A DNA stretch of 32,000 nt, from positions 3,102,651-3,134,650 of the forward strand of contig CP113000.1 of the NCBI GenBank assembly GCA_026625185.1, given 5' to 3'. The notes beneath the pieces are model-generated. The model was not told where the DNA came from, did not search any database, and saw only the letters and a list, made by a program, of their open reading frames with translations. Below are positions 309 through 28,942 of this stretch, piece after piece (within the stretch, counting starts at the first letter, position 1; each line of letters opens with the position of its first letter). The position numbers and the translations under genes were made by a program. Origin of the DNA: Thermodesulfobacteriota bacterium. Its GTDB lineage: Bacteria; Desulfobacterota; WTBG01; JAGOGO01.

Positions 309-619
309 TTCTCTGTCCAATGCCCTCCCAAATGCCTACGAGGTTAGCTGACGGGCTTGGGCTTGGAAGTGCCCTATTCTTCTCAATGAGAAATTAGCCC
401 CTGTTACTTGGGTCCCCCGCATCCATGGTTTCCATGGATCTCGGCGACATAATATTATTTATATTTTGATAAATTATCGATCGCAAAAATCAAAAAGTCA
501 AGTAGAAAAACAGCAACGAATTGCCTCAAATTAAATGTTACCCAAAGAGTGATTAAAAAGGGATCGTTGACTCATAAATAGATGTTGCCGAACATCGACT
601 TCCAAAAGGAGGGATAATT

Positions 620-8403: not shown

Positions 8404-8457
8404 GGTCACGGATTGGGTGGTGCAGAAAATATAATTAATATTATCAAGGAGGGAAAA

Positions 8458-9141
8458 ATGGATCTCACTGCATTGTTTAAATTAAGTTATGGTGTTTATG
8501 TGATTTGCTCGAAAAAGGGAGATAAGATCAATGGCCAAACGGCGAATGCGGTAATGCAAATATCTTCAGAGCCGCCAACCATTGCCATAAGTATTAACAA
8601 ACTGAATTTGACTCACGAATACATTAAAGAAAGCAAGGTATTTTCAATCGCAATTCTCGCACAAGAAACTCCATTAAATTTTATTGGCACTTTTGGCTTT
8701 AAGTCCGGCCGAGATATTAAAAAGTTTGATGGGGTAAATTTCAAGCTTGGAACCTCCCAGGCTCCCGTGCTTTTAGATCATGCTCTTGCCTCAATAGAAG
8801 CAAAAGTAATTAAAGAGGTTGACGCTGGCACCCACACTATTTTTATCGGCGAGATCACCGATGCCGCTAACCTCAAACCGGGTGAACCTATGACCTATGC
8901 TTATTACCACGAGGTAAAAAGAGGAACTACACCCAAAACTGCTGCTACCTATGTTAAAGTAGAACAAAAACCGATTGCGAAGGGAAAATACCAATGTTCA
9001 GTCTGTGGGTATATCTATGATCCGGAAAAAGGCGATCCTGATAGCGGAACACCGGCTGGTACTGCTTTTGATGACCTTCCAGCCACCTGGACCTGCCCAG
9101 TCTGTGGAGCCAGTAAAAGCCAGTTTGAAAAGCTGGCTTAA
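8458..9141 (+). CDS. Flavin reductase-like domain fused to C-terminal rubredoxin (high-molecular-weight rubredoxin, Hrb-type)
   Basis: An N-terminal flavin-reductase fold ([22 protein letters not shown]...HTIFIGEI) is followed by the rubredoxin motif [16 protein letters not shown]...[11 protein letters not shown] set the start at ATG 8458, after SD ggaggg. Confidence 0.85.
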
Positions 9142-9179
9142 CAACAAAGCGTATAGACTTTAACAAAAGGAGGCCCGCC

Positions 9180-9749
9180 ATGATTATCTGGGGAGACTCG
9201 ATTGAAAAAGCTGTAAAAAAAGCAAAGGAAGAAAAAAAGCTGGTTTTATTAGATTTTTTTAACCCCGGGTGAGTCGGATGCCAACAGCTGGATGCTGTTT
9301 CTTGGAAAAATGAAAATGTGAGTAAGGTCGTCACGGATTGGTTCATCCCGGTAAGAATCCCCGGGGACAAACAAGGCGATCTTTTTGTTAAGTATTTGGT
9401 AACGTGGACTCCTACGATCGTCATTTTGGATGAAGAAGGAAGAGAGCATTATCGCTTTACCGGGTTTTTAACACCTGAAGATTTATGCGCCCGCATCATC
9501 ATGGATGGAGCTAAGACTGAGTTAACCTTAAAAAATTATGACCTGGCGTTAAAGCGCCTCACCGATGTCATTGAAAAATATAAAGGCACCTGTGCGGTGC
9601 CGGAGGCAATTTTTTATCTTGGGGTGGCGAAGTATCTTTCTAGTCATAACCCGAAGCCATTACGTGAAGGGTTGGATAGGCTCAGAAAAGAATTTCCACA
9701 AAGCGAATGGACTTTGCGGGCCAAACCCTACGAACTAATCAGTCTTTAG
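9180..9749 (+). CDS. Thioredoxin-fold protein (Thioredoxin_7/DUF255-like N-domain + helical C-domain) with selenocysteine: U-V-G-C
   Basis: SD aaggagg precedes ATG 9180. The frame is continuous with track ORF 9318-9749 except for TGA 9270-9272, in KKLVLLDFFNPG-TGA-VGCQQLD, the first position of the thioredoxin CxxC. A hairpin follows 10 nt later. Confidence 0.75.
9283..9299 (+). promoter_or_regulatory. Candidate bacterial SECIS hairpin for the Trx-fold gene
   Basis: Perfect 6-bp stem aacagc/gctgtt with loop tggat (GG in the apical loop), starting 10 nt after the UGA. Confidence 0.5.
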
Positions 9750-9854
9750 ATCATAATGAATTGCTCGACAGTATCGAAAAATTTTTTGATAAAACGCGTG
9801 CGGACTGCGTTCCTTACGCGCAATACCTATAATTTATGAGAAAGGAGACTACCT

Positions 9855-10229
9855 ATGCCTCAACAGTTATCCATTTATAAATGTGAAGTCTGTGGAAATA
9901 TCGTAGAGTTAATCCATGAGGGCCAAGGAGAACTGGTATGTTGCGGTAAGCCCATGAAACTTTTTGTCGAAAACACCGTGGATGCTGCCCACGAGAAACA
10001 TGTGCCGGTGATTGAAAAAACGTCAACCGGGGTGAAGGTCAAAGTGGGTAGCGTCGCCCATCCCATGGAAGAAAAGCACTATATTGAATGGATCGAAATA
10101 ATCGCGGACGGTAAAGCATTTCGCCAATTTCTTAAACCAGGTGATACTCCGGAAGCAACCTTTGCCATCCAGTCTACTAACATTATTGCACGGGAATACT
10201 GTAATTTACATGGATTATGGAAGGCTTAG
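9855..10229 (+). CDS. dfx: Desulfoferrodoxin (2Fe superoxide reductase)
   Basis: N-terminal desulforedoxin motif [11 protein letters not shown]...VCCGKPM, followed by SOR centre II residues ([26 protein letters not shown]). Confidence 0.9.
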
Positions 10230-10268
10230 GGGAACACGGGTGTTTCCAAAATTAAAGGGAGGATTACG

Positions 10269-10757
10269 ATGAGCATTTTTTTTAATCCTGATGAAGTCTT
10301 AGAAATGGCTGAACAAATTGAGAGAAACGGCGCACAGTTCTATCGCCACGCCGCACAAGAAGCTCACGATGGAGAGACCCGTGCGCTCCTGCAAAGTCTT
10401 GCTGCCATGGAAGATGGGCATCAAAAAGTATTCGCCAAGATGAGAGCAAATCTTAAAAAAGAGGAAATTGATTTTAATGCTGACGAACAAGCCTTGTCCT
10501 ATCTTAAGGCCTGGGCGGATGGACATGTTTTCGACATGAAATCTGATTCAACAACGCGCATGCAACAACATCACAAGAACATGGAAGATATTCTCACTGT
10601 TGCCCTGGGCCTGGAAAAGGAATCCATCGCCTTTTATCTCGGTATGAAAAATAGCGTCAATAATAACACCTATCGGGACAGGATTGACGAAATAATTAAA
10701 GAAGAAATGAAACATATTGTTTTGTTGAGCGCTCAATTATCATCGCTCAAAAAATAA
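10269..10757 (+). CDS. Ferritin-like / rubrerythrin-family diiron protein without a rubredoxin domain
   Basis: Four-helix-bundle-type sequence with two ExxH motifs (AMEDGHQKVF, KEEMKHIVLL). Confidence 0.7.
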   Translation: MSIFFNPDEVLEMAEQIERNGAQFYRHAAQEAHDGETRALLQSLAAMEDGHQKVFAKMRANLKKEEIDFNADEQALSYLKAWADGHVFDMKSDSTTRMQQHHKNMEDILTVALGLEKESIAFYLGMKNSVNNNTYRDRIDEIIKEEMKHIVLLSAQLSSLKK

Positions 10758-10783
10758 GTTTTGTAAAAAAAGGAGGATGAGGT

Positions 10784-11221
10784 ATGCCAAAAGCACTGGT
10801 TGTTTACGCAACTCGAACCGGAGATACCCAAACGATCGCTATGCGGATTGCTGAAGGGCTTAGGGCTTCCGGAGCAGAGGTTAAAGTCGTCGCTGTCAAA
10901 GAAATTACAAACTCGTCAGATTTGCAAGGATATGATGCTTATGTTTTTGGTTCTGCAACTTATCACGGCGAAATGATGGAAGCGATGAAAAAGATGCTCT
11001 TTATGGCAGAAAAAGCCAGTCTTGACGGAAAGATTGGCGGTGCTTTTGGGTCTTACGGGTGGAGCGGAGAAGCCCCAGACCGGATTTACCAGACCATGAA
11101 AAATATCTTTAACATGAAAATGGCTGATAATTCTTTACGCATCAAAAGTCCTATCTCCGCTGCTCATACGCCGGTGGCACAGACGTATGGCCGTGAGATT
11201 GGCCAAAAAATAAACGCTTAA
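10784..11221 (+). CDS. Short-chain flavodoxin
   Basis: Carries VVYATRTGDTQTIA (FMN phosphate loop) and GAFGSYGWSGEA. The 145-aa protein has SD aggagg. Confidence 0.8.
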   Translation: MPKALVVYATRTGDTQTIAMRIAEGLRASGAEVKVVAVKEITNSSDLQGYDAYVFGSATYHGEMMEAMKKMLFMAEKASLDGKIGGAFGSYGWSGEAPDRIYQTMKNIFNMKMADNSLRIKSPISAAHTPVAQTYGREIGQKINA

Positions 11222-11246
11222 TCGATAAATTTGTAGGAGGTGCGCT

Positions 11247-11432
11247 TTGACTACACCTAAATATTGTCCTGGGTTTGACCAAGTCAAACACCTGAGTTCT
11301 TTTACGTGTAAATGTCCTCATTGCGGGGAAGAAAAAGAAATCTTTTCCGACGAATTTGACAGAAAACACATCTGTAAGAAGTGCAAAAAAGAAATTGATT
11401 TTTCCCAATGCACTTTAGAAGGACATGTATAA
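11247..11432 (+). CDS. Small Cys-rich zinc-ribbon protein, function unknown
   Basis: TTG start 6 nt after ggagg. Motifs are CKCPHCG and CKKCKK. Confidence 0.5.
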   Translation: MTTPKYCPGFDQVKHLSSFTCKCPHCGEEKEIFSDEFDRKHICKKCKKEIDFSQCTLEGHV

Positions 11433-11460
11433 GAAATGACATGCCGCTTGAAAGGGGGTG

Positions 11461-13531
11461 ATGGGCCGTTAACCGTTTAGTACATAACAAAAGTCCTTAT
11501 CTCCTTCAACACGCACAAAATCCGGTAGACTGGTATCCGTGGGGAAATGAGGCTTTCCAAAAAGCTAAAGAGGAAGATAAGCCGATTTTTCTTTCCATCG
11601 GGTATTCCACTTGCCATTGGTGCCATGTCATGGCCCATGAATCTTTTGAAGATGCTGAGGTTGCTGCTTTTCTTAATCAACATTATGTCGCTATAAAGGT
11701 TGATCGTGAAGAACGTCCGGACATCGACCAGATTTATATGGTTGTGTGCCAAGCGCTCACCGGCCGAGGAGGGTGGCCGCTTTCGATTTTCATGACCCCC
11801 GATACAAAACCTTTTTTCGCCGGCACCTATTTCCCCAAAAAAGGAAGGATGGGGGTTTCCGGATTTCTCGAGATCATTAAACAAATTGCAAGGTTATGGG
11901 AAAAAGACCGGGGACTGATTACAACCTCCGGTGAAAAGATTACTCATGCTATCCAGCTTTTCGCACCACCGAAAGCTGAGAATATAACCCTGGATCAAGC
12001 CAAGTTAAAACTCGCATTTGAACAATTAGCCCAAAGCTTTGAACCACAATGGGGCGGTTTTAGTCCCGCCCCAAAATTTCCTGTTCCCCATAACCTAACC
12101 TTTCTTTTGCGCTGGTTTAAACGAAGCAATGATCCTCTGGCTTTAACAATGGTAGAAAAAACACTCATTAAAATGAGCCAGGGAGGCATTTTTGATCACA
12201 TTGGGTTTGGTTTTCACCGCTATTCGACGGATGAAAAGTGGCTGGTTCCCCATTTTGAAAAAATGCTTTATGATCAAGCCTTATTAGCTCTTGGGTACCT
12301 CGAAGCTTTTCAAATAACCCACAACAATGATTTTAAACAGACCGCGGAAAAAATTTTTACCTATGTTTTGCGGGATCTTACGTCGCCTGAAGGCGGATTT
12401 TATTCGGCTGAAGATGCGGACAGCGAAGGAGAAGAAGGCCGATTTTACGTGTGGACACCAAAAGAGATAAAAACGGTTTTAGGACCAGAACTCGGAGAAC
12501 TCTTTTGCCGTTTCTATAACATTACCCCTACAGGCAATTTTGAGTCCGGCCTCAGTATCCCCCATGAAACTACTCCTGTTAAAGCTTTTGCTGAGCAGGA
12601 AAGTATTGATTTTGCGGAACTTAAAACAAATTTGGAAATTGCCCGGGGAAAGCTTTTCGACGCTCGGGGAAAACGCATTCACCCTTTAAAAGATGACAAG
12701 ATCATCACATCGTGGAATGGACTTATGATCGCTGCGTTCGCGAAAGGATATCAAATACTTGGCGAACAAAAATATATTGATGCTGCTCGAAAAAGCGCTC
12801 AATTTATCTTGAAAAAACTACGAGATCCCGAGGGGAGAATTTTGAGACGGTTTCGGGAAAAAGAGGTTGCTTTTCCCGGTTATTTGGAAGATTATGCTTT
12901 TTTACTTTGGGGCCTTCTTGAATTCTATGAAGCTACTTTTGAGATTGACTATTTTGAAGAAGCAGTTATTATAAATAATGATATGATAGAATTTTTTTGG
13001 GATGAGAAAGAAGGGGGGTTTTTTTATTCCGGAAAGGGTAATGAGACTCTGATCGCGCAAACCAAGGAAGTGTATGACGGTGCCCTTCCTTCCGGCAATT
13101 CAGTTGCTGCGTCAACCATGCTGCGACTCAGTCGTATGACCGGCAATGTTGACTTAGAAAAAAAAGTGGATCGAATGGTGCAAACATTTGCTTCCCAAAT
13201 TTCTGCGTACCCTCTTAACTCAACTTATTTTTTGCAGGCGCTGGACTTCGCCTTAGGTCCGGCTCAAGAGATTGTCATTAAGGGGGACAAAAAAGATCAG
13301 ACAACACAGGCTATGATCATGGTGGTTCAAAAAAGTTTTCTTCCCCATAAGGTCGTGCTGCTCCAATCCGAAGGTTTTGAAGGAGAGCGACTAGCAAAAC
13401 TATCTTCTTTTATAACCCCAATGATTACGTGTAATCCAAAACCTACGGTATATGTTTGCGAACAGTTTAGTTGCAAAAAACCAATAACTGAGGTAGAAGA
13501 ATTAGAATCATTTTTAAGCACCTGTTTATAA
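11461..13531 (+). CDS. YyaL/SSP411-type thioredoxin-domain protein (DUF255 + six-hairpin domain); start codon unresolved
   Basis: The conserved N-terminus [61 protein letters not shown] begins at 11471, upstream of the track start (11630). No in-frame start lies between the TGA at 11459 and 11630. ATG 11461 is in the +1 frame. Confidence 0.8.
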
Positions 13532-13679
13532 ACCCGGGTAGAAAATTTCTAATGAGATTTTTCCCGTGTTAAAAAGTGTAAAAATTTTAAGGTTACCCTA
13601 CGTTCCACGGTAGATACTTGATATCTAACCTGGCAAGTGGGGCATTTCTAACTGGGTAAATTAACTTCACAAGGAAAAC

Positions 13680-13931
13680 ATGATGCAAGAAAAACAAAAT
13701 TTGTGTGAGAAAATAAAGTCTCTTTATCCGGAAATAGGAGCGTGTGGGATTGACGTCGACATTAATTTCGATGAAACCAAAAAGGCTTGGATCGTTGATT
13801 TAAAAAAGGGGGCCCATCATCTTAAAACTCATTTGGAATCACAGGATGCGGATGCGTGCATGGAAGGGAAACAATGTGTTTATCTGGGCACCCAGATTTC
13901 ACAGCTGGTAGAGAACATTAAAAAAGTTTAA
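13680..13931 (+). CDS. Hypothetical 83-aa protein with 4 Cys, first gene of the iscU/nifS block
   Basis: Clean ORF with aaggaaaaca upstream. I recognise no family. Confidence 0.45.
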   Translation: MMQEKQNLCEKIKSLYPEIGACGIDVDINFDETKKAWIVDLKKGAHHLKTHLESQDADACMEGKQCVYLGTQISQLVENIKKV

Positions 13932-13993
13932 TTATTGACCGAAAACTGCAATGAATTTTGTTTTTTGATTTTTTTTGAAACAGGAGGTTCAAC

Positions 13994-14512
13994 ATGTATT
14001 CTAAGACCGTCATGGATCACTTTAAAAACCCTCGCAACGTAGGGGAGATCCAAGGGGCTGATGGTGTTGGTGAAGTAGGAAATCCTATTTGCGGTGATAT
14101 GATGAAAATAACCATCAAGGTAGCTGATGACCGCATTAAAGACATCAAATTTTTGACTTTTGGATGTGGCGCAGCCATTGCGGTTTCCAGCATGGTAACC
14201 GAAATGGCGAAAGGAAAAACGCTTGAAGATGCAAAAAAGATCAGTAAGGAATCCGTCGCCAAAGCCTTAGAGGGCCTGCCAAAAAATAAACTTCACTGTT
14301 CTAACTTAGGCGCCGACGCCCTCCAAATGGCAATCAAGGATTACGAAAACCGCAAAAACGGGAAAGTTAAGGAGCAGGATACAACCGAAGGTTATCATTG
14401 TTACACCGAAGAAGAACATTGCAAGTGCCCTTATTGCGATTCGGAAATGCATGCCGGAGAAAAAACCTGTGCGATGTGTGGTCGAAAAATCGAGATTAAG
14501 CTGAGCATGTAA
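13994..14512 (+). CDS. IscU/NifU-N Fe-S scaffold with a C-terminal zinc-ribbon extension
   Basis: The three scaffold Cys motifs are GNPICGDMM, FGCGAAIA and LHCSNLG. The extra tail reads HCKCPYCDSEMHAGEKTCAMCG. Confidence 0.85.
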   Translation: MYSKTVMDHFKNPRNVGEIQGADGVGEVGNPICGDMMKITIKVADDRIKDIKFLTFGCGAAIAVSSMVTEMAKGKTLEDAKKISKESVAKALEGLPKNKLHCSNLGADALQMAIKDYENRKNGKVKEQDTTEGYHCYTEEEHCKCPYCDSEMHAGEKTCAMCGRKIEIKLSM

Positions 14513-14536
14513 CCTGTGATTGGGAGGATAACATTG

Positions 14537-15700
14537 ATGAACCCGATAAATTTTGATTATATTTCCAGTAATCCGCTCTTGCCGGAAGTTAAGAATGCGA
14601 TGATTGAAGCAATTAAAAAGGACTATGGTAATCCTTCTAGTGCACACCAATTAGGAGAAGAAGCCGCGGAAGAAATAGAAAAAGCTCGCGAAAAGGTGGC
14701 TAAGCTCATTAACGCCTCGCCCGATGAAATAATTTTCACCTCCTGTGGAACTGAATCGAATAACCATGCCATTAAAGGGGTAGCTTTCGCTAAAAAAGAT
14801 AAAGGAAAACATATTTTAACCTCGGACATTGAACACAATGCCGTTTTAAAACCTATCCGGACACTACGAACGTTAGGCTATGATACCACATCGGTTTCCG
14901 TTGACCAGTTTGGAAGAATAAAACCTGATGATGTGCTTAAAGCGATACGGGATGAAACAATTCTTATCAGCATTATGCATTCAAATAATGAAATCGGGAC
15001 CATCCAGCCTATCAAAGAAATCGCGAACATTGCTCGAGAAAAAAAGGTAACCTTCCATTGTGATGCTGTCGCCTCAGTTGGTGTTATCCCTGTGGACGTG
15101 CATGACCTGGGGGTTGATTTATTCAGCTTTGCTGCCAATCAATTCAATGGCCCTTCAGGGGTGGGCGGGCTTTATATCCGTAAAGGAACGAGCCTTTGGC
15201 CTTTACTTGATGGAGGTGGACAGGAAAATAAAAGACGCGGAGGAACAGAAAACCTGATTGGGATTATCGGCATGGGAGTTGCGGCGGAGATTACCCGAAA
15301 AGACATGGAATCCCGTCTGACACACTTCAAGATGATAAAAGAAAGGTTGACGAACGGGTTAAAGGAAAATATTGACGATATTATTTTTAACGGACACCCG
15401 GAATATGCTTTACCCAACCTTATTTCTTTATCCATTAAGTATATCGAAGGAGAAAGCATTGTTTTAATGCTGGATGAAAAAGATATTGCGGTGGCAACAA
15501 AATCAGCCTGCGCCTCGGGGTCGCTTCGTGCTTCTCATGTGCTCATCGCCATTGGAAGAGATTACGCTGATGCCCAAGGAACACTGGTGATAACGTACGG
15601 TCGTGATACTAGCGAGACTGACGTTGACCGATTTTTAGAAGCACTGAAAAAATCGGTTGATACGCTGAGAAAAATGTCTCCACTTTATCAAAAGAAATGA
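14537..15700 (+). CDS. Cysteine desulfurase (NifS/IscS class V aminotransferase)
   Basis: Carries SSAHQLGEEA, the PLP-Lys region and the active-site loop ATKSACASGS. The likely start is ATG 14537 (MNPINFDY). The gene ends in TGA. Confidence 0.9.
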   Translation: MNPINFDYISSNPLLPEVKNAMIEAIKKDYGNPSSAHQLGEEAAEEIEKAREKVAKLINASPDEIIFTSCGTESNNHAIKGVAFAKKDKGKHILTSDIEHNAVLKPIRTLRTLGYDTTSVSVDQFGRIKPDDVLKAIRDETILISIMHSNNEIGTIQPIKEIANIAREKKVTFHCDAVASVGVIPVDVHDLGVDLFSFAANQFNGPSGVGGLYIRKGTSLWPLLDGGGQENKRRGGTENLIGIIGMGVAAEITRKDMESRLTHFKMIKERLTNGLKENIDDIIFNGHPEYALPNLISLSIKYIEGESIVLMLDEKDIAVATKSACASGSLRASHVLIAIGRDYADAQGTLVITYGRDTSETDVDRFLEALKKSVDTLRKMSPLYQKK

Positions 15701-15727
15701 TATCGGCACCAAAGGGACGCAGCTACC

Positions 15728-16693
15728 ATGTATATTTTGGGCATCCAGGGCAGCCCTCGAAAACAAGGAAACTCCAGCACGTTGCTTTCTGCTTTTTTAG
15801 TGGAAGCTCAACAGCTCGGTTCGGAGACCGTTACCCTTGACGTTGCGAGCAAAAAAATACACCCCTGTATCGGCTGTGGCAACTGTGAGCGGGAAGGGTT
15901 CTGCGCTCTTCAGGATGACATGCAAGAGGTGTATCCGCTGTTCTGGAAAGCAGATCTTATCGTGGTTGCCACTCCGATATTTTTTTACCATGTCCCGGCG
16001 CACTTAAAAGCCTTGATTGACCGATGCCAAACCCTGTGGTCAAGAAAATATATCCATAAAATTTCTGATCCCGGGCATCAGTGGAGAAAAGGTTATGTGC
16101 TTTCCGTGGGCGCAACCAAAGGGATGAATCTCTTCGAAGGGTTAACGCTCACCATGAAATATGTTTTTGACGCTGTTGGCGCTGATTTCGGTGGGAGCCT
16201 TACTTTTAGGAAAATTGAAAAGCCCGGGGACATTATTCAACACCCTAGTGCCCTGCAGGAGGTCAAAAGAAAAGCTGAATTTTGGGTCAACCTTTTTCTC
16301 AAACGGAAAAAAATTCTTTTTCTTTGCATTGAAAATAGTTGCCGGAGTCAGATGGCGCAAGCTTTTACTCAACTTTATGGAGGAGATAAGGTTGAGGCAG
16401 AAAGCGCCGGAAGCACCCCCGGAGAAAAAATACATGATCTGATGGTTGCGGTGATGAAGGAAAAAGGAATCGATATGGCTTTTCGCAAACCTAAATCATT
16501 CACCCAACTTGCACCTTCATTTACACCGAATTTAATAGTATCAATGGGATGTGGAGGAGAATGTTCGTTTTTTCCTTCTGCTGGCCGGCAGGATTGGAAT
16601 CTCCCCGACCCTACTCATCAACCCATTGCGGTTATGCGCACCGTAAGGGATGAAATCGAAAAAAAGGTAAAGAACCTTTTGATAACCCTTTAA
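15728..16693 (+). CDS. Fusion protein: iron-sulfur flavoprotein (Isf/NADPH-FMN reductase-like) + LMW-PTP/ArsC-type arsenate reductase domain
   Basis: The N-half has ILGIQGSPRKQGNS and a compact cluster motif CIGCGNCEREGFC. The C-half has the CX5R P-loop LFLCIENSCRSQMA and downstream MGCGGEC. Confidence 0.8.
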   Translation: MYILGIQGSPRKQGNSSTLLSAFLVEAQQLGSETVTLDVASKKIHPCIGCGNCEREGFCALQDDMQEVYPLFWKADLIVVATPIFFYHVPAHLKALIDRCQTLWSRKYIHKISDPGHQWRKGYVLSVGATKGMNLFEGLTLTMKYVFDAVGADFGGSLTFRKIEKPGDIIQHPSALQEVKRKAEFWVNLFLKRKKILFLCIENSCRSQMAQAFTQLYGGDKVEAESAGSTPGEKIHDLMVAVMKEKGIDMAFRKPKSFTQLAPSFTPNLIVSMGCGGECSFFPSAGRQDWNLPDPTHQPIAVMRTVRDEIEKKVKNLLITL

Positions 16694-16732
16694 TAAATCC
16701 GGGAAATCAATCTATACAAAAGGAGGACCATA

Positions 16733-16891
16733 ATGGATAAATATGTATGCTCAGTGTGTGGTTATGTCTATGATCCTGCTAAAGGAGATCCGGAGCAGGG
16801 AGTGAAGCCAGGAACACCATTCGCAGATCTTCCCGCTGGTTGGGGCTGTCCGGTCTGCGGCGCCGCAAGAGATCAATTTGAAAGGGAATAA
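16733..16891 (+). CDS. Rubredoxin (52 aa; missed by the ORF track)
   Basis: SD aggagg. The sequence [52 protein letters not shown] is a canonical rubredoxin. Confidence 0.85.
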
Positions 16892-16912
16892 TCTCACGTA
16901 CGAAAAATTGTT

Positions 16913-18028
16913 ATGAATGAAAATAAAACTTATGGTGGTGCGATCAAGGAATTAACCATTCTTCAAGGCGCAGTCCAAAACACCAACGAGGCTTTTGTAA
17001 CCATTGATCAAGACCACCAAGTAATATTTTTTAACCAGGCAGCAGAAAAAATTTTTGGGTACCGTCGGGAAGAAGTTATCGGACAAAACCTCAACTGCAT
17101 CTTGACTCCTCGGTGCAGTCAAAATCACCAAAAAGCGGTAGAGCGGTATATAAAAACCAAAAATCCGGTCCTGATCGGCCATGAGACTGAGTTTATAGCC
17201 GCCCGCAAGGACGGGGAAACATTTCCCGCCTCTATTTCTTTTTCTGTTTCCGAGGTGGAGGGAAAACTTTATTTTACCGCTTTAATCAGGGATGTGACCG
17301 AGACCAAAACCTTACAGGAACAGCTTTTACAATCCGAGCGTTTAGCCGCGCTCGGTCAGTTGGTGGCGGAAATTACTCATGAGATTAAAAACCCGCTTAT
17401 TCTTATCGGCGGTTTCGCTCAACAATTAAAAAAAACTATCACCGGAGAAAAAGAACTTTCCAAGCTGACTATCATTGTCGAAGAGATCAGGCGGTTGGAA
17501 AGTCTCCTTCTTGAACTTCGCGATTTTTATCTTCCGAAAAATTTGGCGTTTGAAACGCTTAATATCAATGAGCTGTTGGAAGAAGTCTATCTTATCACCA
17601 AGGATAGTTGGGAAAAGAAAAATATCCGGACGACTCTCCAGACGGAGAGAAAGGAAAATTTAATTGAAGGTGATAAGGAAAAGCTAAAACAGGTTTTACT
17701 CAATTTAGTAAAAAATGCGGTTGAGGCCATGGAAGAAGGTGGTAACCTTTCAATTCAGTCCGGTGTAACCGATACTATGGTTGAGGTAAAAATAGTTGAT
17801 GACGGTCCCGGGATCTCAAAAAGTAATCAAGAAAAAATATTTAATCCTTTTTTTACCACTAAAAAACATGGGAGCGGCTTAGGACTGCCGATCTGCAAAA
17901 GAATTATCGGAGATCATCCCAACTCTTCCCTCAGCTTAACCAGTGAAGATGGTAAGGGGACAGTGGCAAAAATAATCTTCCCCGCTCAAAGCCCCACACG
18001 CAAGCCTCTTACCGCAGATAATAGCTGA
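16913..18028 (+). CDS. Cytoplasmic PAS-domain sensor histidine kinase
   Basis: A PAS region (FVTIDQDHQVIFFNQAAEKIFGY) is followed by the H-box EITHEIKNPL, N-box LLNLVKNAVEA, and the motifs DDGPGI and GSGLGLPI. No TM segments were seen. Confidence 0.85.
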   Translation: MNENKTYGGAIKELTILQGAVQNTNEAFVTIDQDHQVIFFNQAAEKIFGYRREEVIGQNLNCILTPRCSQNHQKAVERYIKTKNPVLIGHETEFIAARKDGETFPASISFSVSEVEGKLYFTALIRDVTETKTLQEQLLQSERLAALGQLVAEITHEIKNPLILIGGFAQQLKKTITGEKELSKLTIIVEEIRRLESLLLELRDFYLPKNLAFETLNINELLEEVYLITKDSWEKKNIRTTLQTERKENLIEGDKEKLKQVLLNLVKNAVEAMEEGGNLSIQSGVTDTMVEVKIVDDGPGISKSNQEKIFNPFFTTKKHGSGLGLPICKRIIGDHPNSSLSLTSEDGKGTVAKIIFPAQSPTRKPLTADNS

Positions 18029-18065
18029 TGCTTTAATATAATCGTTATGTAACCTCAAGGAGAAA

Positions 18066-19247
18066 ATGATGAAACCCGTAAAAATAACCGAAGGGATTTA
18101 CTGCTTACCCGCCATTGACTGGAATATCCGGGATTTCCACGGTTATGCTACCGAACAAGGGACAACGTATAACGCTTATCTGATAATGGATGAAAAGATC
18201 ACCTTGGTTGACACCGTGAAAAAAGAATTTGCTGATGACCTCCTTGAAGGCATCGGGCAAATCGTTGACCCGAAAAAGATTGATTATGTTATCAGTAACC
18301 ATACGGAAATGGACCACTCCGGTGGGCTTCCAAGGGTGATGCATAAAATTGGCGAAAACAAACCCATCTATTGCTCCAAGATGGGTTATAAAAATCTTCC
18401 TCGGCATTTCTCTCCGAATCTCAACTATCAGCCGGTTGAAAATGGAGGAGAATTAAAGGTGGGCAAAAGAACCCTGGCCTTCCTGGAAACCAAAATGCTT
18501 CACTGGCCGGACAGCATGGTAACATACGCCAAGGAAGATAAAATTCTTTTTTCCAGTGATGCCTTTGGACAGCACTATGCCGGATTGGAGCGGTTTGATG
18601 ACCAGATCGGAGAAACGATTATGACCTATGCCCGGAAATATTTCGCCAATATCCTTCTTCTCTATTCCGATTTGATACTCAAACTGGCAGAAAAAATAAC
18701 CGCCCTCGGATTGGTTATTGACATCATCTGCCCTGATCATGGCATTATCTGGCGAAAAGATCCGGGCAAAATTATTAATGCCTACGTTGAGTGGAGCGCT
18801 CAAAAGCCAAAGAAAAAAGCGCTGGTCATTTATGACACCATGTGGCAAAGCACTCGCAAAATGGCGGAAGCCATCGTTGAGGGTCTGGGGGATGAAGGGG
18901 TTGACGCTCAGTGCATGCACCTGAGGTCGTTTAACCGCAGCGATATCATAACCGAAGTTCTTGATGCCGGTGCTATTGTTGTTGGCTCTCCAACTCTTAA
19001 TAATGGACTTTTCCCCACGGTCAGTGATTTCTTAACCTATATGAAAGGATTCAAGCCGAAGAACAAAATTGCTGCTGCATTTGGCTCCTACGGGTGGAGT
19101 GGAGAGGCGGTAAAAATAATAACTAAAGCGTTTGATGAAATGAAATTCAATGTGATAGATCCGGGTCTGATGGTCCAATATGTTCCGAACCAAGAAACAT
19201 TTGAGGCCTGTTTCCAACTGGGGAAAAAGATCGGCAGGGCACTTTAA
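18066..19247 (+). CDS. fprA: Flavodiiron protein (FprA / rubredoxin:oxygen oxidoreductase type)
   Basis: A metallo-beta-lactamase-like domain with the diiron motif NHTEMDHSG is joined to a C-terminal flavodoxin domain (ALVIYDTMWQSTRKMA, AAFGSYGWSGEA). Confidence 0.9.
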   Translation: MMKPVKITEGIYCLPAIDWNIRDFHGYATEQGTTYNAYLIMDEKITLVDTVKKEFADDLLEGIGQIVDPKKIDYVISNHTEMDHSGGLPRVMHKIGENKPIYCSKMGYKNLPRHFSPNLNYQPVENGGELKVGKRTLAFLETKMLHWPDSMVTYAKEDKILFSSDAFGQHYAGLERFDDQIGETIMTYARKYFANILLLYSDLILKLAEKITALGLVIDIICPDHGIIWRKDPGKIINAYVEWSAQKPKKKALVIYDTMWQSTRKMAEAIVEGLGDEGVDAQCMHLRSFNRSDIITEVLDAGAIVVGSPTLNNGLFPTVSDFLTYMKGFKPKNKIAAAFGSYGWSGEAVKIITKAFDEMKFNVIDPGLMVQYVPNQETFEACFQLGKKIGRAL

Positions 19248-20808: not shown

Positions 20809-21276
20809 TTTGTCATCGGAATAGTAATCGGCATCACCCTGGAATTCCAATTCGGAACCAACTGGGACCGGTACTCGAAGTTTGTGGGAGATATTTTTGG
20901 TTCTCTCCTTGCTATTGATGCGACTGCCGCATTTTTTCTCGAATCAACCTTTATTTCCGTGTGGGCTTTGGGATGGAAACGACTCTCTCCCAAAGCCCAT
21001 ACCCTAACTATCTGACTGGTGGTAATAGCATCCAACCTTTACGACGTGTGGATCCTTATTGCCAATTACTGGATGCAATATCCGGTTGGTTTCGTCATCA
21101 GAATTGGTCAGATTGAATTGACAGACTTTCTGGCGGTCATAATCCAGACCTTAAAAATCATGCTGGGGGTTCCGCTCATTTTTGTCCCGCTTATCATCGC
21201 CTATCAGGCCTTGGCATATAATTTTTTTAAAGGCAAAGCCAAAGAACAAGCACTCGCCTACGAAGAACCCTACTAA
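20809..21276 (+). pseudogene. cydAB: Relic of cytochrome bd oxidase genes: cydA internal fragment fused to the cydB C-terminus
   Basis: Reading gives ..GIVIGITLEFQFGTNWDRYSKFVGDIFGSLLAIDATAAFFLESTF..GWKRLSPKAHTLTI*LVVIASNLYDVWILIANYWMQYPVG. This is CydA helices II-IV, with TGA 21013-21015 at a conserved Trp. It then jumps to a CydB-like tail, PLIIAYQALAYNFFKGKA...EEPY. There is no N-terminus and no start codon. Confidence 0.7.
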
Positions 21277-26625: not shown

Positions 26626-26654
26626 TTGAAAAGAGCTTGAGTGTTGTTTATAAT
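26626..26654 (+). promoter_or_regulatory. Near-consensus sigma-70 promoter placed for a leaderless archease-rtcB transcript
   Basis: TTGAAA (26626-26631), a 17-nt spacer, then TATAAT (26649-26654). The archease ATG at 26661 is 6 nt after the -10 box and has no SD. Confidence 0.55.
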
Positions 26655-26660
26655 AAATTT

Positions 26661-27080
26661 ATGAACGAACATATCCGGTTTATTGATCACACGGCCGATG
26701 TCGGGGTTATTATTTCTGGTCAAAGCTTACCGGAGCTTTTTCAGCATGCCGCCCGAAGCTTTTTTTCCGTTTTGACCGAGGTTGATCAAATTCAGGGAAA
26801 CGAAGCTCACAAGTTCTCGCTTGAGGCGCCGAATCTGGAAGAGCTCTTGGTTTCATGGCTTAATGAATTTCTTTTTCTTTTCGAAACCCAGGAATTGCTT
26901 TTCAGCCGTTTTGACATAAAAAACTTAAATCCAAATGGGCTGGAAGCGACGGTCTGGGGAGAAAAGTATACGCCGGAAAAACACCTCATCAAAAGAATAA
27001 TCAAGGCGGTTACGTTTCATAAACTCGCCATAACGGAAAAAAACGGCCAATGGCAGACCCAGATTATTTACGACCTTTAA
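26661..27080 (+). CDS. Archease (RtcB activator)
   Basis: MNEHIRFIDHTADVGVIISGQSLPELFQHAARSF... carries the archease HTAD motif at the usual N-terminal distance. It sits directly upstream of rtcB. Confidence 0.85.
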   Translation: MNEHIRFIDHTADVGVIISGQSLPELFQHAARSFFSVLTEVDQIQGNEAHKFSLEAPNLEELLVSWLNEFLFLFETQELLFSRFDIKNLNPNGLEATVWGEKYTPEKHLIKRIIKAVTFHKLAITEKNGQWQTQIIYDL

Positions 27081-27095
27081 GTTGAGGTTGTCATT

Positions 27096-28550
27096 ATGAC
27101 TGAAAAGATTAATGTAAAAGTTCAAAAAATTGATCCGTGGCGATGGTTGATTCCGCGGGAAGGCGCTATGAAAACTGACGGTTTGGTCTACGCGGATGAG
27201 AAGATGATCAAAGATATTCAGAAAGACCAAAGTCTCCTCCAAGTTGCCAATGTCGCTACCCTTCCGGGAATTCTCGGAAAATCAATGGCCATGCCCGATA
27301 TTCATTGGGGATATGGGTTCCCCATCGGTGGCGTGGCGGCTTTTGATATGGGAACCGGAGTAGTTTCTCCCGGTGGGGTTGGCTACGACATAAACTGAGG
27401 GGTACGACTGATGCGCTCAGGTTTGAGCCGCGACGACATTCAAAAAAAGATTCACCAACTCGTCGATACCTTGTTCAGGAATATCCCCTCAGGCGTAGGC
27501 TCACATCGGAAAGATCTGAAACTCAGTTATCAAGAACTTGACCGCGTCTTAGAAGAAGGAGCCCAATGGGCGATTAAGCAAGGGTACGGTTCCGCGGAAG
27601 ATAGAGAACACCTGGAAGCCTGCGGCTGCATTGACGGAGCGGATCAAAAAATGGTTAGTGACCGTGCCAAAGAAAGGGGTCGCGCCCAGTTAGGAACTCT
27701 CGGTTCAGGTAACCATTTTGTGGAAATCGGCTATGTTGAGGAAGTCTATGATGTAAAAGCAGCCCAAAAGCTGGGACTCGAAAAAGATGGAGTTACCGTT
27801 TTAGTGCACACCGGCTCCCGAGGATTGGGCCATCAGGTATGCGATGATTTTATACGGGTGATGCTTGAAGCGTCACGGCGACACGGGATTGAACTCCCCG
27901 ATAAGCAACTCTGCTGCGCTCCACTTGATTCTCCGGAGGGGAAACAATATCTGGCGGCTATGGCAAGTGCCGCTAACTTTGCTTTTGCGAATCGCCAGCT
28001 CATTTCCCACTGGACCCGGGAGTCTTTTGAACAGGTGTTTAAGGTGGGGCCAAAATTCCTCCAACTCGAAGTGGTGTATGATGTTTGCCATAATATCGCT
28101 AAAATCGAGGCCCATGATGTGCAAGGAGAAAAAAAGAAAGTATGTGTCCACCGCAAGGGAGCCACCCGGGCATTTCCCCCCGGCCATCCCGAACTCCCTT
28201 TCGACTACCGCGAGATAGGACAGCCTGTGCTCATTCCGGGTGATATGGGCCGGTATTCTTACGTGCTGCTGGGTACTGAAAAAGCTTACCAAGAAACCTT
28301 CGGGTCAACCTGTCATGGAGCGGGCCGGCTCATGAGCAGGCATGAGGCCAAAAGAAAGGCGCAAGGGAAATCAATTAGCAAAGAACTTGAAAGTAAAGGA
28401 ATAATTGTCCGCGGCGCCAGCCGGGAAACCCTGGATGAAGAAATTCCCGAAGCCTACAAAGATGTTAGCGATGTGGTGCAGGTCGTGCATGGGGCCGGGA
28501 TCAGTAAAAAAGTGGTTAGGTTAAAACCTATTGGAGTACTTAAGGGATAG
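27096..28550 (+). CDS. rtcB: RNA 3'-phosphate/5'-OH ligase RtcB with in-frame UGA (putative selenocysteine) at the metal-bridging Cys position
   Basis: Track ORFs 27096-27398 and 27411-28550 are in the same frame. Together they give a 484-codon RtcB carrying [41 protein letters not shown] and STCHGAGR. The only break is TGA 27396-27398, within [18 protein letters not shown], where RtcB proteins have DINCGVRL. Confidence 0.85.
27413..27431 (+). promoter_or_regulatory. Candidate bacterial SECIS hairpin for rtcB
   Basis: Structure gc-gctca-GGTT-tgagc-(c)-gc: a 5-bp core stem plus 2 bp across a one-nt bulge, with a G-rich tetraloop. It starts 14 nt after the UGA. Confidence 0.55.
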
Positions 28551-28732: not shown

Positions 28733-28942
28733 TTATTGTAACTTATCAGTCTCATTGATAATTTCAGTCAATTCTTTAAGAAATGCGTTGAGCCCTCTTT
28801 CGGGTACAATGATAAAACTCCTCTTATCACCGGATTTTTCCGTAATCTTTAGGTACCGACCGTTTGGGTTCTCTTTAACATCCAAGAAAAAAAGCTTACT
28901 TTCAATTTCAAACCTTCGACTTATTAATTCATTATCCATCAA
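28733..28942 (-). CDS. PUR-alpha-like (DUF3276-type) nucleic-acid-binding protein
   Basis: The 69-aa sequence SKLFFLDVKENPNGRYLKITEKSGDKRSFIIVPERGLNAFLKEL fits the bacterial PUR-repeat pattern. Confidence 0.6.
   Translation of the reverse strand: MMDNELISRRFEIESKLFFLDVKENPNGRYLKITEKSGDKRSFIIVPERGLNAFLKELTEIINETDKLQ

Follow-up and report, generated by a model that had tools for sequence, protein, structure and literature searches.

The closest described relatives of the gene analyzed here are the cysteine-type RtcB RNA ligases PH1602, TTHA1785, Escherichia coli RtcB, and human RTCB. In Pyrococcus horikoshii RtcB, Cys98 contacts both Mn2+ ions, sharing one with His234 and His329 and the other with Asp95 and His203, and mutants with alanine at Cys98 are ligase-dead (PMC10630183). 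Our subject is the rtcB gene of a Thermodesulfobacteriota bacterium, which lies in a 32,000-nucleotide (nt) stretch of contig CP113000.1 (assembly GCA_026625185.1). This whole stretch is referred to as the window, and positions are counted from its first letter. The window gene resembles the cysteine-type enzymes in fold, length, Mn2+ ligands, guanylylated histidine, and archease neighbor, but at the bridging ligand it has a UGA codon followed by a putative selenocysteine insertion sequence (SECIS) hairpin. To our knowledge, no characterized RtcB has selenocysteine (Sec) at the bridging position. Judged from sequence comparison, the product of the window rtcB is very probably a functional RtcB 3'-phosphate/5'-hydroxyl RNA ligase of full length, with the UGA at codon 101 translated as Sec. 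The UGA almost certainly encodes Sec, because the UGA and the recoding hairpin have been kept in at least 120 bacterial species.

Several known systems share part of this arrangement. In formate dehydrogenase FdhA (Mo or W) and in the [NiFeSe] hydrogenases (Ni), Sec likewise replaces a cysteine that coordinates the catalytic metal. However, these are redox enzymes with soft or redox-active metals, whereas RtcB, a nucleotidyl-transferase/ligase, is non-redox and has a binuclear Mn2+ center, and the families are unrelated. Sec has been placed at the identical residue in the engineered P. horikoshii RtcB U98 (Haruna et al. 2014, PMC4150793). That protein was artificial, made as a reporter with a UAG/EF-Tu system, whereas the Sec predicted here is natural, specified by UGA and a SECIS, and evolutionarily conserved. 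Thioredoxin-fold selenoproteins with UxxC or CxxU motifs show the same in-frame UGA at a cysteine position, a downstream hairpin, and Sec/Cys homolog pairs, but their Sec is redox-active, while in RtcB it is predicted to be a metal ligand in an RNA-processing enzyme. Finally, PYROXD1 shields the cysteine of human RTCB from copper- and oxygen-dependent inactivation (PMC10630183). The weakness addressed, oxidative inactivation of the active-site cysteine, is the same, but PYROXD1 is a separate flavoprotein guardian, whereas the solution that we hypothesize for Sec-RtcB is a chalcogen swap inside the ligase.

An in-frame UGA at the metal-bridging position of RtcB

The window rtcB (27096-28550, + strand) is one frame of 484 sense codons plus a terminal stop, and its sole internal stop is the TGA at 27396-27398. 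The open reading frame (ORF) listing cuts the gene into 27096-27398 (100 amino acids) and 27411-28550 (379 amino acids). A preliminary description of this DNA had proposed that these two ORFs belong to one frame parted by the TGA, and the single frame was confirmed. When the stop was replaced, the full-length product matched the Pfam RtcB family (PF01139) over positions 1-426 of 426 with an E value of 1.8e-180 and 601 bits (cut-off 27). It also matched the Thermus thermophilus RtcB TTHA1785 structure 2epg (E = 1.6e-183) and the P. horikoshii RtcB structures 1uc2, 4dwq, and 7lfq (E about 3e-174).

In these alignments the internal TGA fell on the cysteine of the DINCGVRL motif of TTHA1785, which is Cys98 in P. 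horikoshii and Cys122 in human RTCB, in agreement with the preliminary description. The position of the essential bridging cysteine is a UGA codon in the window gene. If this codon is read as Sec, a chalcogen ligand would be kept at the bridging position, where it is predicted to be common to both Mn2+ ions.

The top NCBIfam match of the window protein was the intein-containing RtcB model NF038162, with 753 bits against a cut-off of 1150. This model matched two extein stretches only, and the window protein of 484 amino acids has no insert. An RtcB with an intein at the Cys98 junction was thus rejected.

Recurrence of the UGA across bacterial genomes

We scanned one genome per species, 185,579 species in all, with the pattern V-G-[YF]-D-I-x-TGA-G-V. 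At least 120 stretches matched, and the numbers of Sec copies given throughout (120, of which 119 are distinct and 83 are full-length) rest on the matches listed. All 120 listed matches were RtcB genes with the TGA in frame at the bridging-cysteine codon. Where the locus was complete, the downstream frame was open for 378-383 codons, except in three copies with an additional premature stop. These three (L047, L074, and L076) have it at 133, 86, and 324 codons past the UGA, respectively, and they may be decaying copies or assembly errors.

Protein searches gave the same picture from annotated products. The best 120 matches to the N-terminal piece were almost all products of 97-100 amino acids, and 121 of the 122 short homologous products ended exactly at GGVGYDIN. 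The earlier argument that a chance nonsense mutation is an unlikely origin of this TGA is borne out by these identical ends and by the TGA shared by all 120 listed matches. Eight contigs from 6 independent samples, NCBI GCA_029216075.1 among them, encode the exact 100-amino-acid product of the window, always with the 379-amino-acid piece next to it. A 90%-identity cluster of the C-terminal piece mixed 484-amino-acid DINCGVRLMRS proteins with split products of 100 and 379 amino acids. A protein search spanning the site found Cys forms only and no RtcB bearing U or X, but this negative says little since the search does not accept U as input.

According to record titles, the listed carriers were mostly Thermodesulfobacteriota, Nitrospirota, and Acidobacteriota. 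The Thermodesulfobacteriota ('delta proteobacteria') included Syntrophaceae, Syntrophorhabdaceae, Desulfarculaceae, Desulfobacterales, and others. The Nitrospirota included Thermodesulfovibrionia and Ca. Magnetobacterium casense, and the Acidobacteriota included Vicinamibacterales and Thermoanaerobaculia. There were single records from Binatia, Eisenbacteria, Gemmatimonadales, Polyangiaceae, and Planctomycetota. Sec-rtcB is also carried by the complete chromosomes OZ245365.1, OZ252293.1, and CP070669.1.

The rest of the active site is intact. Structure alignment identified the remaining metal ligands of the window protein as Asp98 (codon 27387-27389, Asp95 in P. horikoshii), His207 (27714-27716, His203), His238 (27807-27809, His234), and His332 (28089-28091, His329), and the guanylylated histidine as His407 (28314-28316, His404). 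The equivalents of all five residues were kept in 83 of 83 full-length Sec copies.

Directly upstream of the window rtcB is the gene of the RtcB activator archease (26637-27080, + strand; Pfam Archease, 3.1e-42), whose stop codon lies 15 nt before the rtcB ATG, and the two form an operon-like pair. Archease adjoins Sec-rtcB on the same strand in 99 of the 120 listed loci, and in most of the others the upstream sequence was too short.

A conserved hairpin downstream of the UGA

The preliminary description had reported a hairpin with a GGUU loop at 27413-27431, beginning 14 nt past the UGA, and its coordinates proved correct. The hairpin (GCGCUCA-GGUU-UGAGC(C)GC) has a 7-bp stem, in which five contiguous pairs are followed by a 1-nt bulge and two more pairs, and its loop (27420-27423) starts 21 nt past the UGA. 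It was part of the minimum-energy structure of the 61-nt fold of 27390-27450 (-10.1 kcal/mol). From the fold and from comparative models, the element is predicted to be a bacterial SECIS (bSECIS). By published rules a bSECIS has (i-iii) an apical loop of 3-9 nt on an upper stem of 4-16 bp, a G within the first two positions of the loop, and a distance of 16-37 nt from UGA to loop, and (iv) a minimum free energy of -7.5 kcal/mol or lower (PMC13188914). The GGUU loop, 7-bp stem, and 21-nt spacing of the window hairpin all lie within rules i-iii.

The controls were 117 Cys-form RtcB sequences, obtained by scanning metagenomes with the pattern after TGY had been substituted for TGA. All four bSECIS rules were passed by 95 of 119 Sec copies versus 18 of 117 Cys controls. 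The best single hairpin had an energy of -8 kcal/mol or lower in 93% of the Sec copies (100% at -6 or lower) versus 50% of the Cys controls, and the mean fold-energy z-score was -1.57 for the Sec copies versus -0.16 for the Cys controls (Mann-Whitney p = 9e-7). When the sequences were fitted to four fixed-register pairing models, one of the models was matched by 108 of 119 Sec copies, 5 of 117 Cys controls, and 75 of 2380 shuffled Sec sequences. The apical loops of the Sec copies were at nt 24/25-28/29 from the U of the UGA and read GGUC, GGUU, GGUCU, CGGGUU, or CGUGUU, mostly GGUC or GGUU. Those of the Nitrospirota copies were at nt 31-39 instead. In contrast, the loops of the Cys controls were scattered and had no consensus.

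The hairpin also covaries. In class B, the encoded peptide changed from R-S-G-L-E-R to K-T-G-L-V-F while the paired arms changed from CGCUCC/GGAGCG to AAGACC/GGUCUU. Four of the seven class B pairs covaried, with two-sided changes in 29 cells, and the score was reached by 0 of 500 shuffles. In the Nitrospirota, 6 of the 16 pairs of a 16-bp helix showed compensatory changes, in 17 cells. The Nitrospirota element (L018, L020, L021, L026-L028, L034-L036, and others) combines this 16-bp helix, in which an A is bulged, with a loop of 9 nt at nt 31-39.

In class A, to which the window belongs (53 sequences), synonymous sites within the hairpin are frozen. Arg+6 was encoded by CGC in 51 of 51 sequences, while Arg+3 used six codons. 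Ser+7 used only UCN and Ser+10 only AGY, and Leu+9 used only YUG, while Leu+4 used six codons. Selection therefore acts on the RNA over and above the coding sequence. The proportion of paired cells was 95% in class A, against 22-41% in slid controls, and 97% in class B, but these percentages are partly circular because the classes were defined by pairing, and the fair comparison is that with the Cys and shuffle controls of the fixed-register models.

Sec/Cys pairs

The residue at the UGA position was cysteine in 80 of 80 aligned full-length Cys forms and in both displayed alignments to homologs in the PDB. The preliminary description had suggested that relatives be examined for Sec/Cys pairs and for covariation of the hairpin, and both exist. 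Syntenic orthologs (archease, rtcB, small ORF, mnmG) with 92% protein identity carry TGC and retain the hairpin, and covariation was seen in class B and in the Nitrospirota.

In a rough neighbor-joining tree of 83 Sec and 80 Cys forms, the Sec forms occupied one large part with a few nested Cys forms. In one Cys form that nests with the Sec forms of Nitrospirota, a remnant of the long helix survives, while others have lost the helix. Fitch parsimony on this tree gave seven changes and a Cys root. This would fit few gains of Sec and several reversions to Cys, a history that we propose with low confidence.

Probable Sec decoding in the host

The host probably decodes UGA as Sec, as a second gene in the window suggests. 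A thioredoxin-like gene at 9181-9749 (+ strand; Pfam Thioredoxin_2/7) has a TGA at 9270-9272, at the first cysteine of its CxxC motif (NPG-U-VGC). It begins with a good Shine-Dalgarno sequence (SD) and an ATG at 9181, and a small hairpin follows the TGA. Most of its 116 homologs have been called as N-truncated ORFs, and the calls of 158 amino acids start directly after the TGA codon, while genuine Cys forms read CIGC. UxxC proteins of PF13098 are a catalogued selenoprotein family (PMC13188914). The gene at 9181-9749 is thus a credible classical UxxC selenoprotein that has been split by gene callers, and it provides independent evidence that the organism decodes UGA as Sec.

Several observations weigh against a Sec-decoding rtcB. 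No tRNA-Sec was found in the 32-kb window, which holds no tRNA, and none was found by ARAGORN in the flanks of about 8 kb around the listed Sec-rtcB loci. All 120 listed carriers are metagenome-assembled or otherwise uncultured genomes. The window hairpin alone could not be distinguished from shuffled sequence (z-score of 0.18 for the 61-nt fold). The preliminary description had called for a test of the hairpin by bSECIS criteria, and while rules i-iii agree, the energy rule does not: the 19-nt core has -6.9 kcal/mol against the threshold of -7.5 and thus fails the four-rule scan. No covariation was seen among the 53 sequences of class A. No Rfam SECIS family matched the whole window at gathering thresholds or the region 27370-27470 at E values up to 10. 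Lastly, the engineered P. horikoshii RtcB with Sec98 underwent spontaneous peptide cleavage (PMC4150793), and therefore Sec at this site is not automatically benign. By itself the window hairpin is unexceptional, and the weight of the hairpin evidence is comparative.

A related possibility is that the UGA is translated but not as Sec, with Cys, Trp, or Gly inserted by a suppressor or near-cognate tRNA or under a reassigned code. Some ENA calls do give Trp for the TGA in homologs of the thioredoxin-like gene. Two of them, P0257 and P0260, show Trp at the Sec position, apparently because the TGA was translated with code 4 on short contigs, an artifact able to hide selenoproteins. However, TGA is an ordinary terminator in this genome region, where it ends 3 of the 18 Pfam-supported + strand genes of the window, and the carriers do not belong to code-4 or code-25 lineages. 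All 80 aligned Cys-form homologs have cysteine at the position, and Trp or Gly cannot ligate metals. Moreover, the UGA copies, and specifically these, keep a hairpin of the SelB type whose GGU-containing loop lies at the canonical distance. Read-through with a standard amino acid is thus very unlikely.

Translation past the UGA

Translation as Sec predicts one continuous protein, and the codons that follow the UGA agree with this. The G-V-R-L codons at 27399-27410 (+ strand) directly follow the UGA and precede the first possible restart codon of the window gene. These four amino acids were present in all 119 distinct sequences except for one copy with G-V-R-V, while 4, 4, 6, and 6 synonymous codons were used at G, V, R, and L, respectively. 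A constant peptide with varied synonymous codons indicates purifying selection on the translated product.

The competing view is that rtcB has become a split gene, in which translation stops at the UGA and restarts at the ATG at 27411, and the pieces of 100 and 379 amino acids assemble or act otherwise. Gene callers give exactly these two ORFs. In addition, the preliminary description had stated that the downstream piece lacks an SD of its own, which is not strictly true, since a GAGGGG that overlaps the UGA-GGG sits about 10 nt 5' of this ATG. Any UGA with a Gly codon behind it produces this GAGG automatically. The Met encoded at 27411 is part of the GVRLMRS motif, which is kept in the Cys forms as well. 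The fifth codon past the UGA was ATG in 36 of the 119 sequences. Within 19 codons past the UGA, 70 of the 119 had no ATG and 27 had no ATG, GTG, or TTG. Since restart codons are often absent, a separately initiated C-terminal protein is ruled out as the account of the conservation. Furthermore, the G-V-R-L residues have been kept although they would be untranslated in a split gene, and the split product would be without the essential bridging ligand. We regard a split gene as highly improbable.

The same evidence bears on whether rtcB is a pseudogene, inactivated by a nonsense mutation from TGC or TGT to TGA and followed by a hairpin that is a coincidence of the coding sequence. Only one base separates TGC from TGA, the hairpin of the single window sequence is statistically ordinary, close relatives have TGC with the same hairpin, and 3 of 120 TGA copies have a further premature stop. 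However, at least 120 species of several phyla share this TGA, with about 383 intact codons after it and with the catalytic residues and archease kept. Purifying selection acts on the codons that flank the stop, and the hairpin, which covaries, is specific to the copies with TGA. The pseudogene explanation, to which we give next to no probability, has effectively been refuted. A sequencing or assembly error at a TGC or TGT codon, a generic possibility in metagenome assemblies for which nothing specific speaks here, is of negligible probability, as the identical allele was found in 8 contigs from 6 samples and different assemblies and hundreds of independent sequences share the stop.

Other features of the window

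The preliminary description had noted the in-frame TGA pattern in two other window genes. This held for the thioredoxin-like gene with its TGA at 9270, while two other candidates, a DUF255/YyaL gene with a TGA at 11459 and a cydA fragment with a TGA at 21013, were rejected. The DUF255/YyaL gene has a normal CHWC motif, and its TGA lies upstream of the conserved N-terminus. At its start (11441-11630, + strand; ORF to 13531) there is no in-frame start codon for the conserved N-terminus. The ATG at 11461, which comes after a strong SD (GAAAGGGGG), is one base out of frame, as with an extra G, and the anomaly is either a frameshift or an assembly error. The cydA fragment (20809-21276, + strand) is a truncated remnant of cytochrome bd subunit I in which the TGA stands at a Trp position, and it is probably a pseudogene. 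A relative with 91% identity (L007, 556-2299) has intact cydA and cydB directly upstream of archease and rtcB.

The preliminary description had placed rtcB beside an oxygen-defense island. Such an island, for defense against oxygen and reactive oxygen species and for Fe-S clusters, is present at 8413-19247 (+ strand). It includes a flavin reductase-rubredoxin fusion, desulfoferrodoxin, a rubrerythrin/ferritin-like protein, flavodoxin, NifU, and NifS. It also includes an FMN reductase-low-molecular-weight phosphatase fusion, rubredoxin, a PAS histidine kinase, a flavodiiron protein, and the Sec thioredoxin-like protein. However, the island ends about 8 kb upstream of archease and rtcB, with signaling genes between them, and the genomic link between the island and rtcB is therefore weak.

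Between rtcB and mnmG there is a convergent ORF of 68 amino acids with a match to Pfam PurA (PF04845) at 28733-28942 (- strand). It is kept in all close relatives (L001, 4638-4844; L007, 4854-5060; L129, 4640-4846; L131, 4722-4928). Ten ordinary tRNAs are present in the flanks of Sec-rtcB loci (L009-L128), and seven of them are tRNA-Leu. At 318-456 (- strand) the window has a c-di-AMP riboswitch (Rfam RF00379, 90 bits, E = 4.5e-20).

Discussion

The proposal that the UGA encodes Sec at the metal-bridging cysteine, with a bSECIS behind it, is supported by every comparative test available. In the mechanism that these sequence signatures point to, the hairpin 14 nt past the UGA, with its GGUU loop 21 nt past, would recruit SelB with Sec-tRNA(Sec) to the ribosome at the UGA, and Sec would be put in instead of termination. 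By homology to the characterized enzymes, the selenolate would then stand in for the Cys98 thiolate and bridge the two Mn2+ ions together with Asp98, His207, His238, and His332. His407 would be guanylylated, and archease, encoded just upstream, would promote guanylylation and multiple turnover. The window gene would belong to a large Sec-RtcB clade that extends over Thermodesulfobacteriota, Nitrospirota, Acidobacteriota, and several further phyla, with occasional reversion to Cys inside the clade.

What would such a ligase gain from selenium? The cysteine thiolate that holds the two Mn2+ ions is a known weak point of the characterized RtcBs under oxidative stress. Oxidized selenium is more readily reduced back. 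For this reason we hypothesize that Sec makes the ligase resistant to irreversible oxidation in these mostly anaerobic or microaerophilic bacteria. The bridging cysteine was found oxidized in aerobically purified P. horikoshii RtcB (PMC10630183). For the [NiFeSe] hydrogenases, the proposed benefit of Sec is that the metal site is spared irreversible over-oxidation (PMC13188914), which parallels the rationale proposed here for Sec-RtcB.

Neither RtcB nor PF01139 nor any RNA ligase appears in the May 2026 inventory of 119 prokaryotic selenoprotein families and subfamilies (PMC13188914, Table 1), in line with the preliminary description, which did not count RtcB among the catalogued selenoproteins. 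There is no selenoprotein-type RtcB model in NCBIfam release 20, and RtcB is unmentioned in the supplements of deep-Sep, Peng 2016, and Kivenson 2021. Among the papers covered by full-text literature searches, none described a natural Sec-RtcB, and only the engineered U98 and unrelated papers were found. A groundwater study of metagenome-assembled genomes is cited in PMC13188914 as reporting 'potentially novel candidate selenoproteins'. The novelty of Sec-RtcB is probable, not certain. More tentatively, Sec-RtcB might be an undescribed, widespread selenoenzyme family, with no earlier selenoprotein in RNA repair or splicing and no earlier case of a selenolate that bridges a binuclear Mn2+ center. 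It might perhaps have a built-in protection against the metal-catalyzed oxidative inactivation that PYROXD1 counters in metazoa, and perhaps a shifted metal preference. Taken together, these features are a possibility that we consider somewhat less than even.

The finding has consequences for annotation. Current annotations split rtcB into two fragments (100 amino acids and about 380 amino acids), both in the genomes of at least 120 species and in metagenomic sequences numbering in the hundreds. Generic labels like 'uncharacterized conserved protein' or 'hypothetical protein' are common for these fragments. A single selenoprotein is the proper annotation of the gene, and selenoprotein catalogues and search models should include it. 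The three or four covarying hairpin variants, including the off-consensus Nitrospirota form, would be useful for models of the bacterial SECIS. RtcB is also in use as an RNA-ligation reagent, and an oxidation-tolerant variant could therefore be useful.

A known enzyme and a known recoding mechanism meet here in a combination that is widespread and apparently uncatalogued, and the consequences for chemistry and robustness are directly testable. A natural Sec variant offers a direct test of whether selenium protects RtcB or alters its metal chemistry. Sec-RtcB would extend selenium biology from redox enzymes to RNA ligation and repair.

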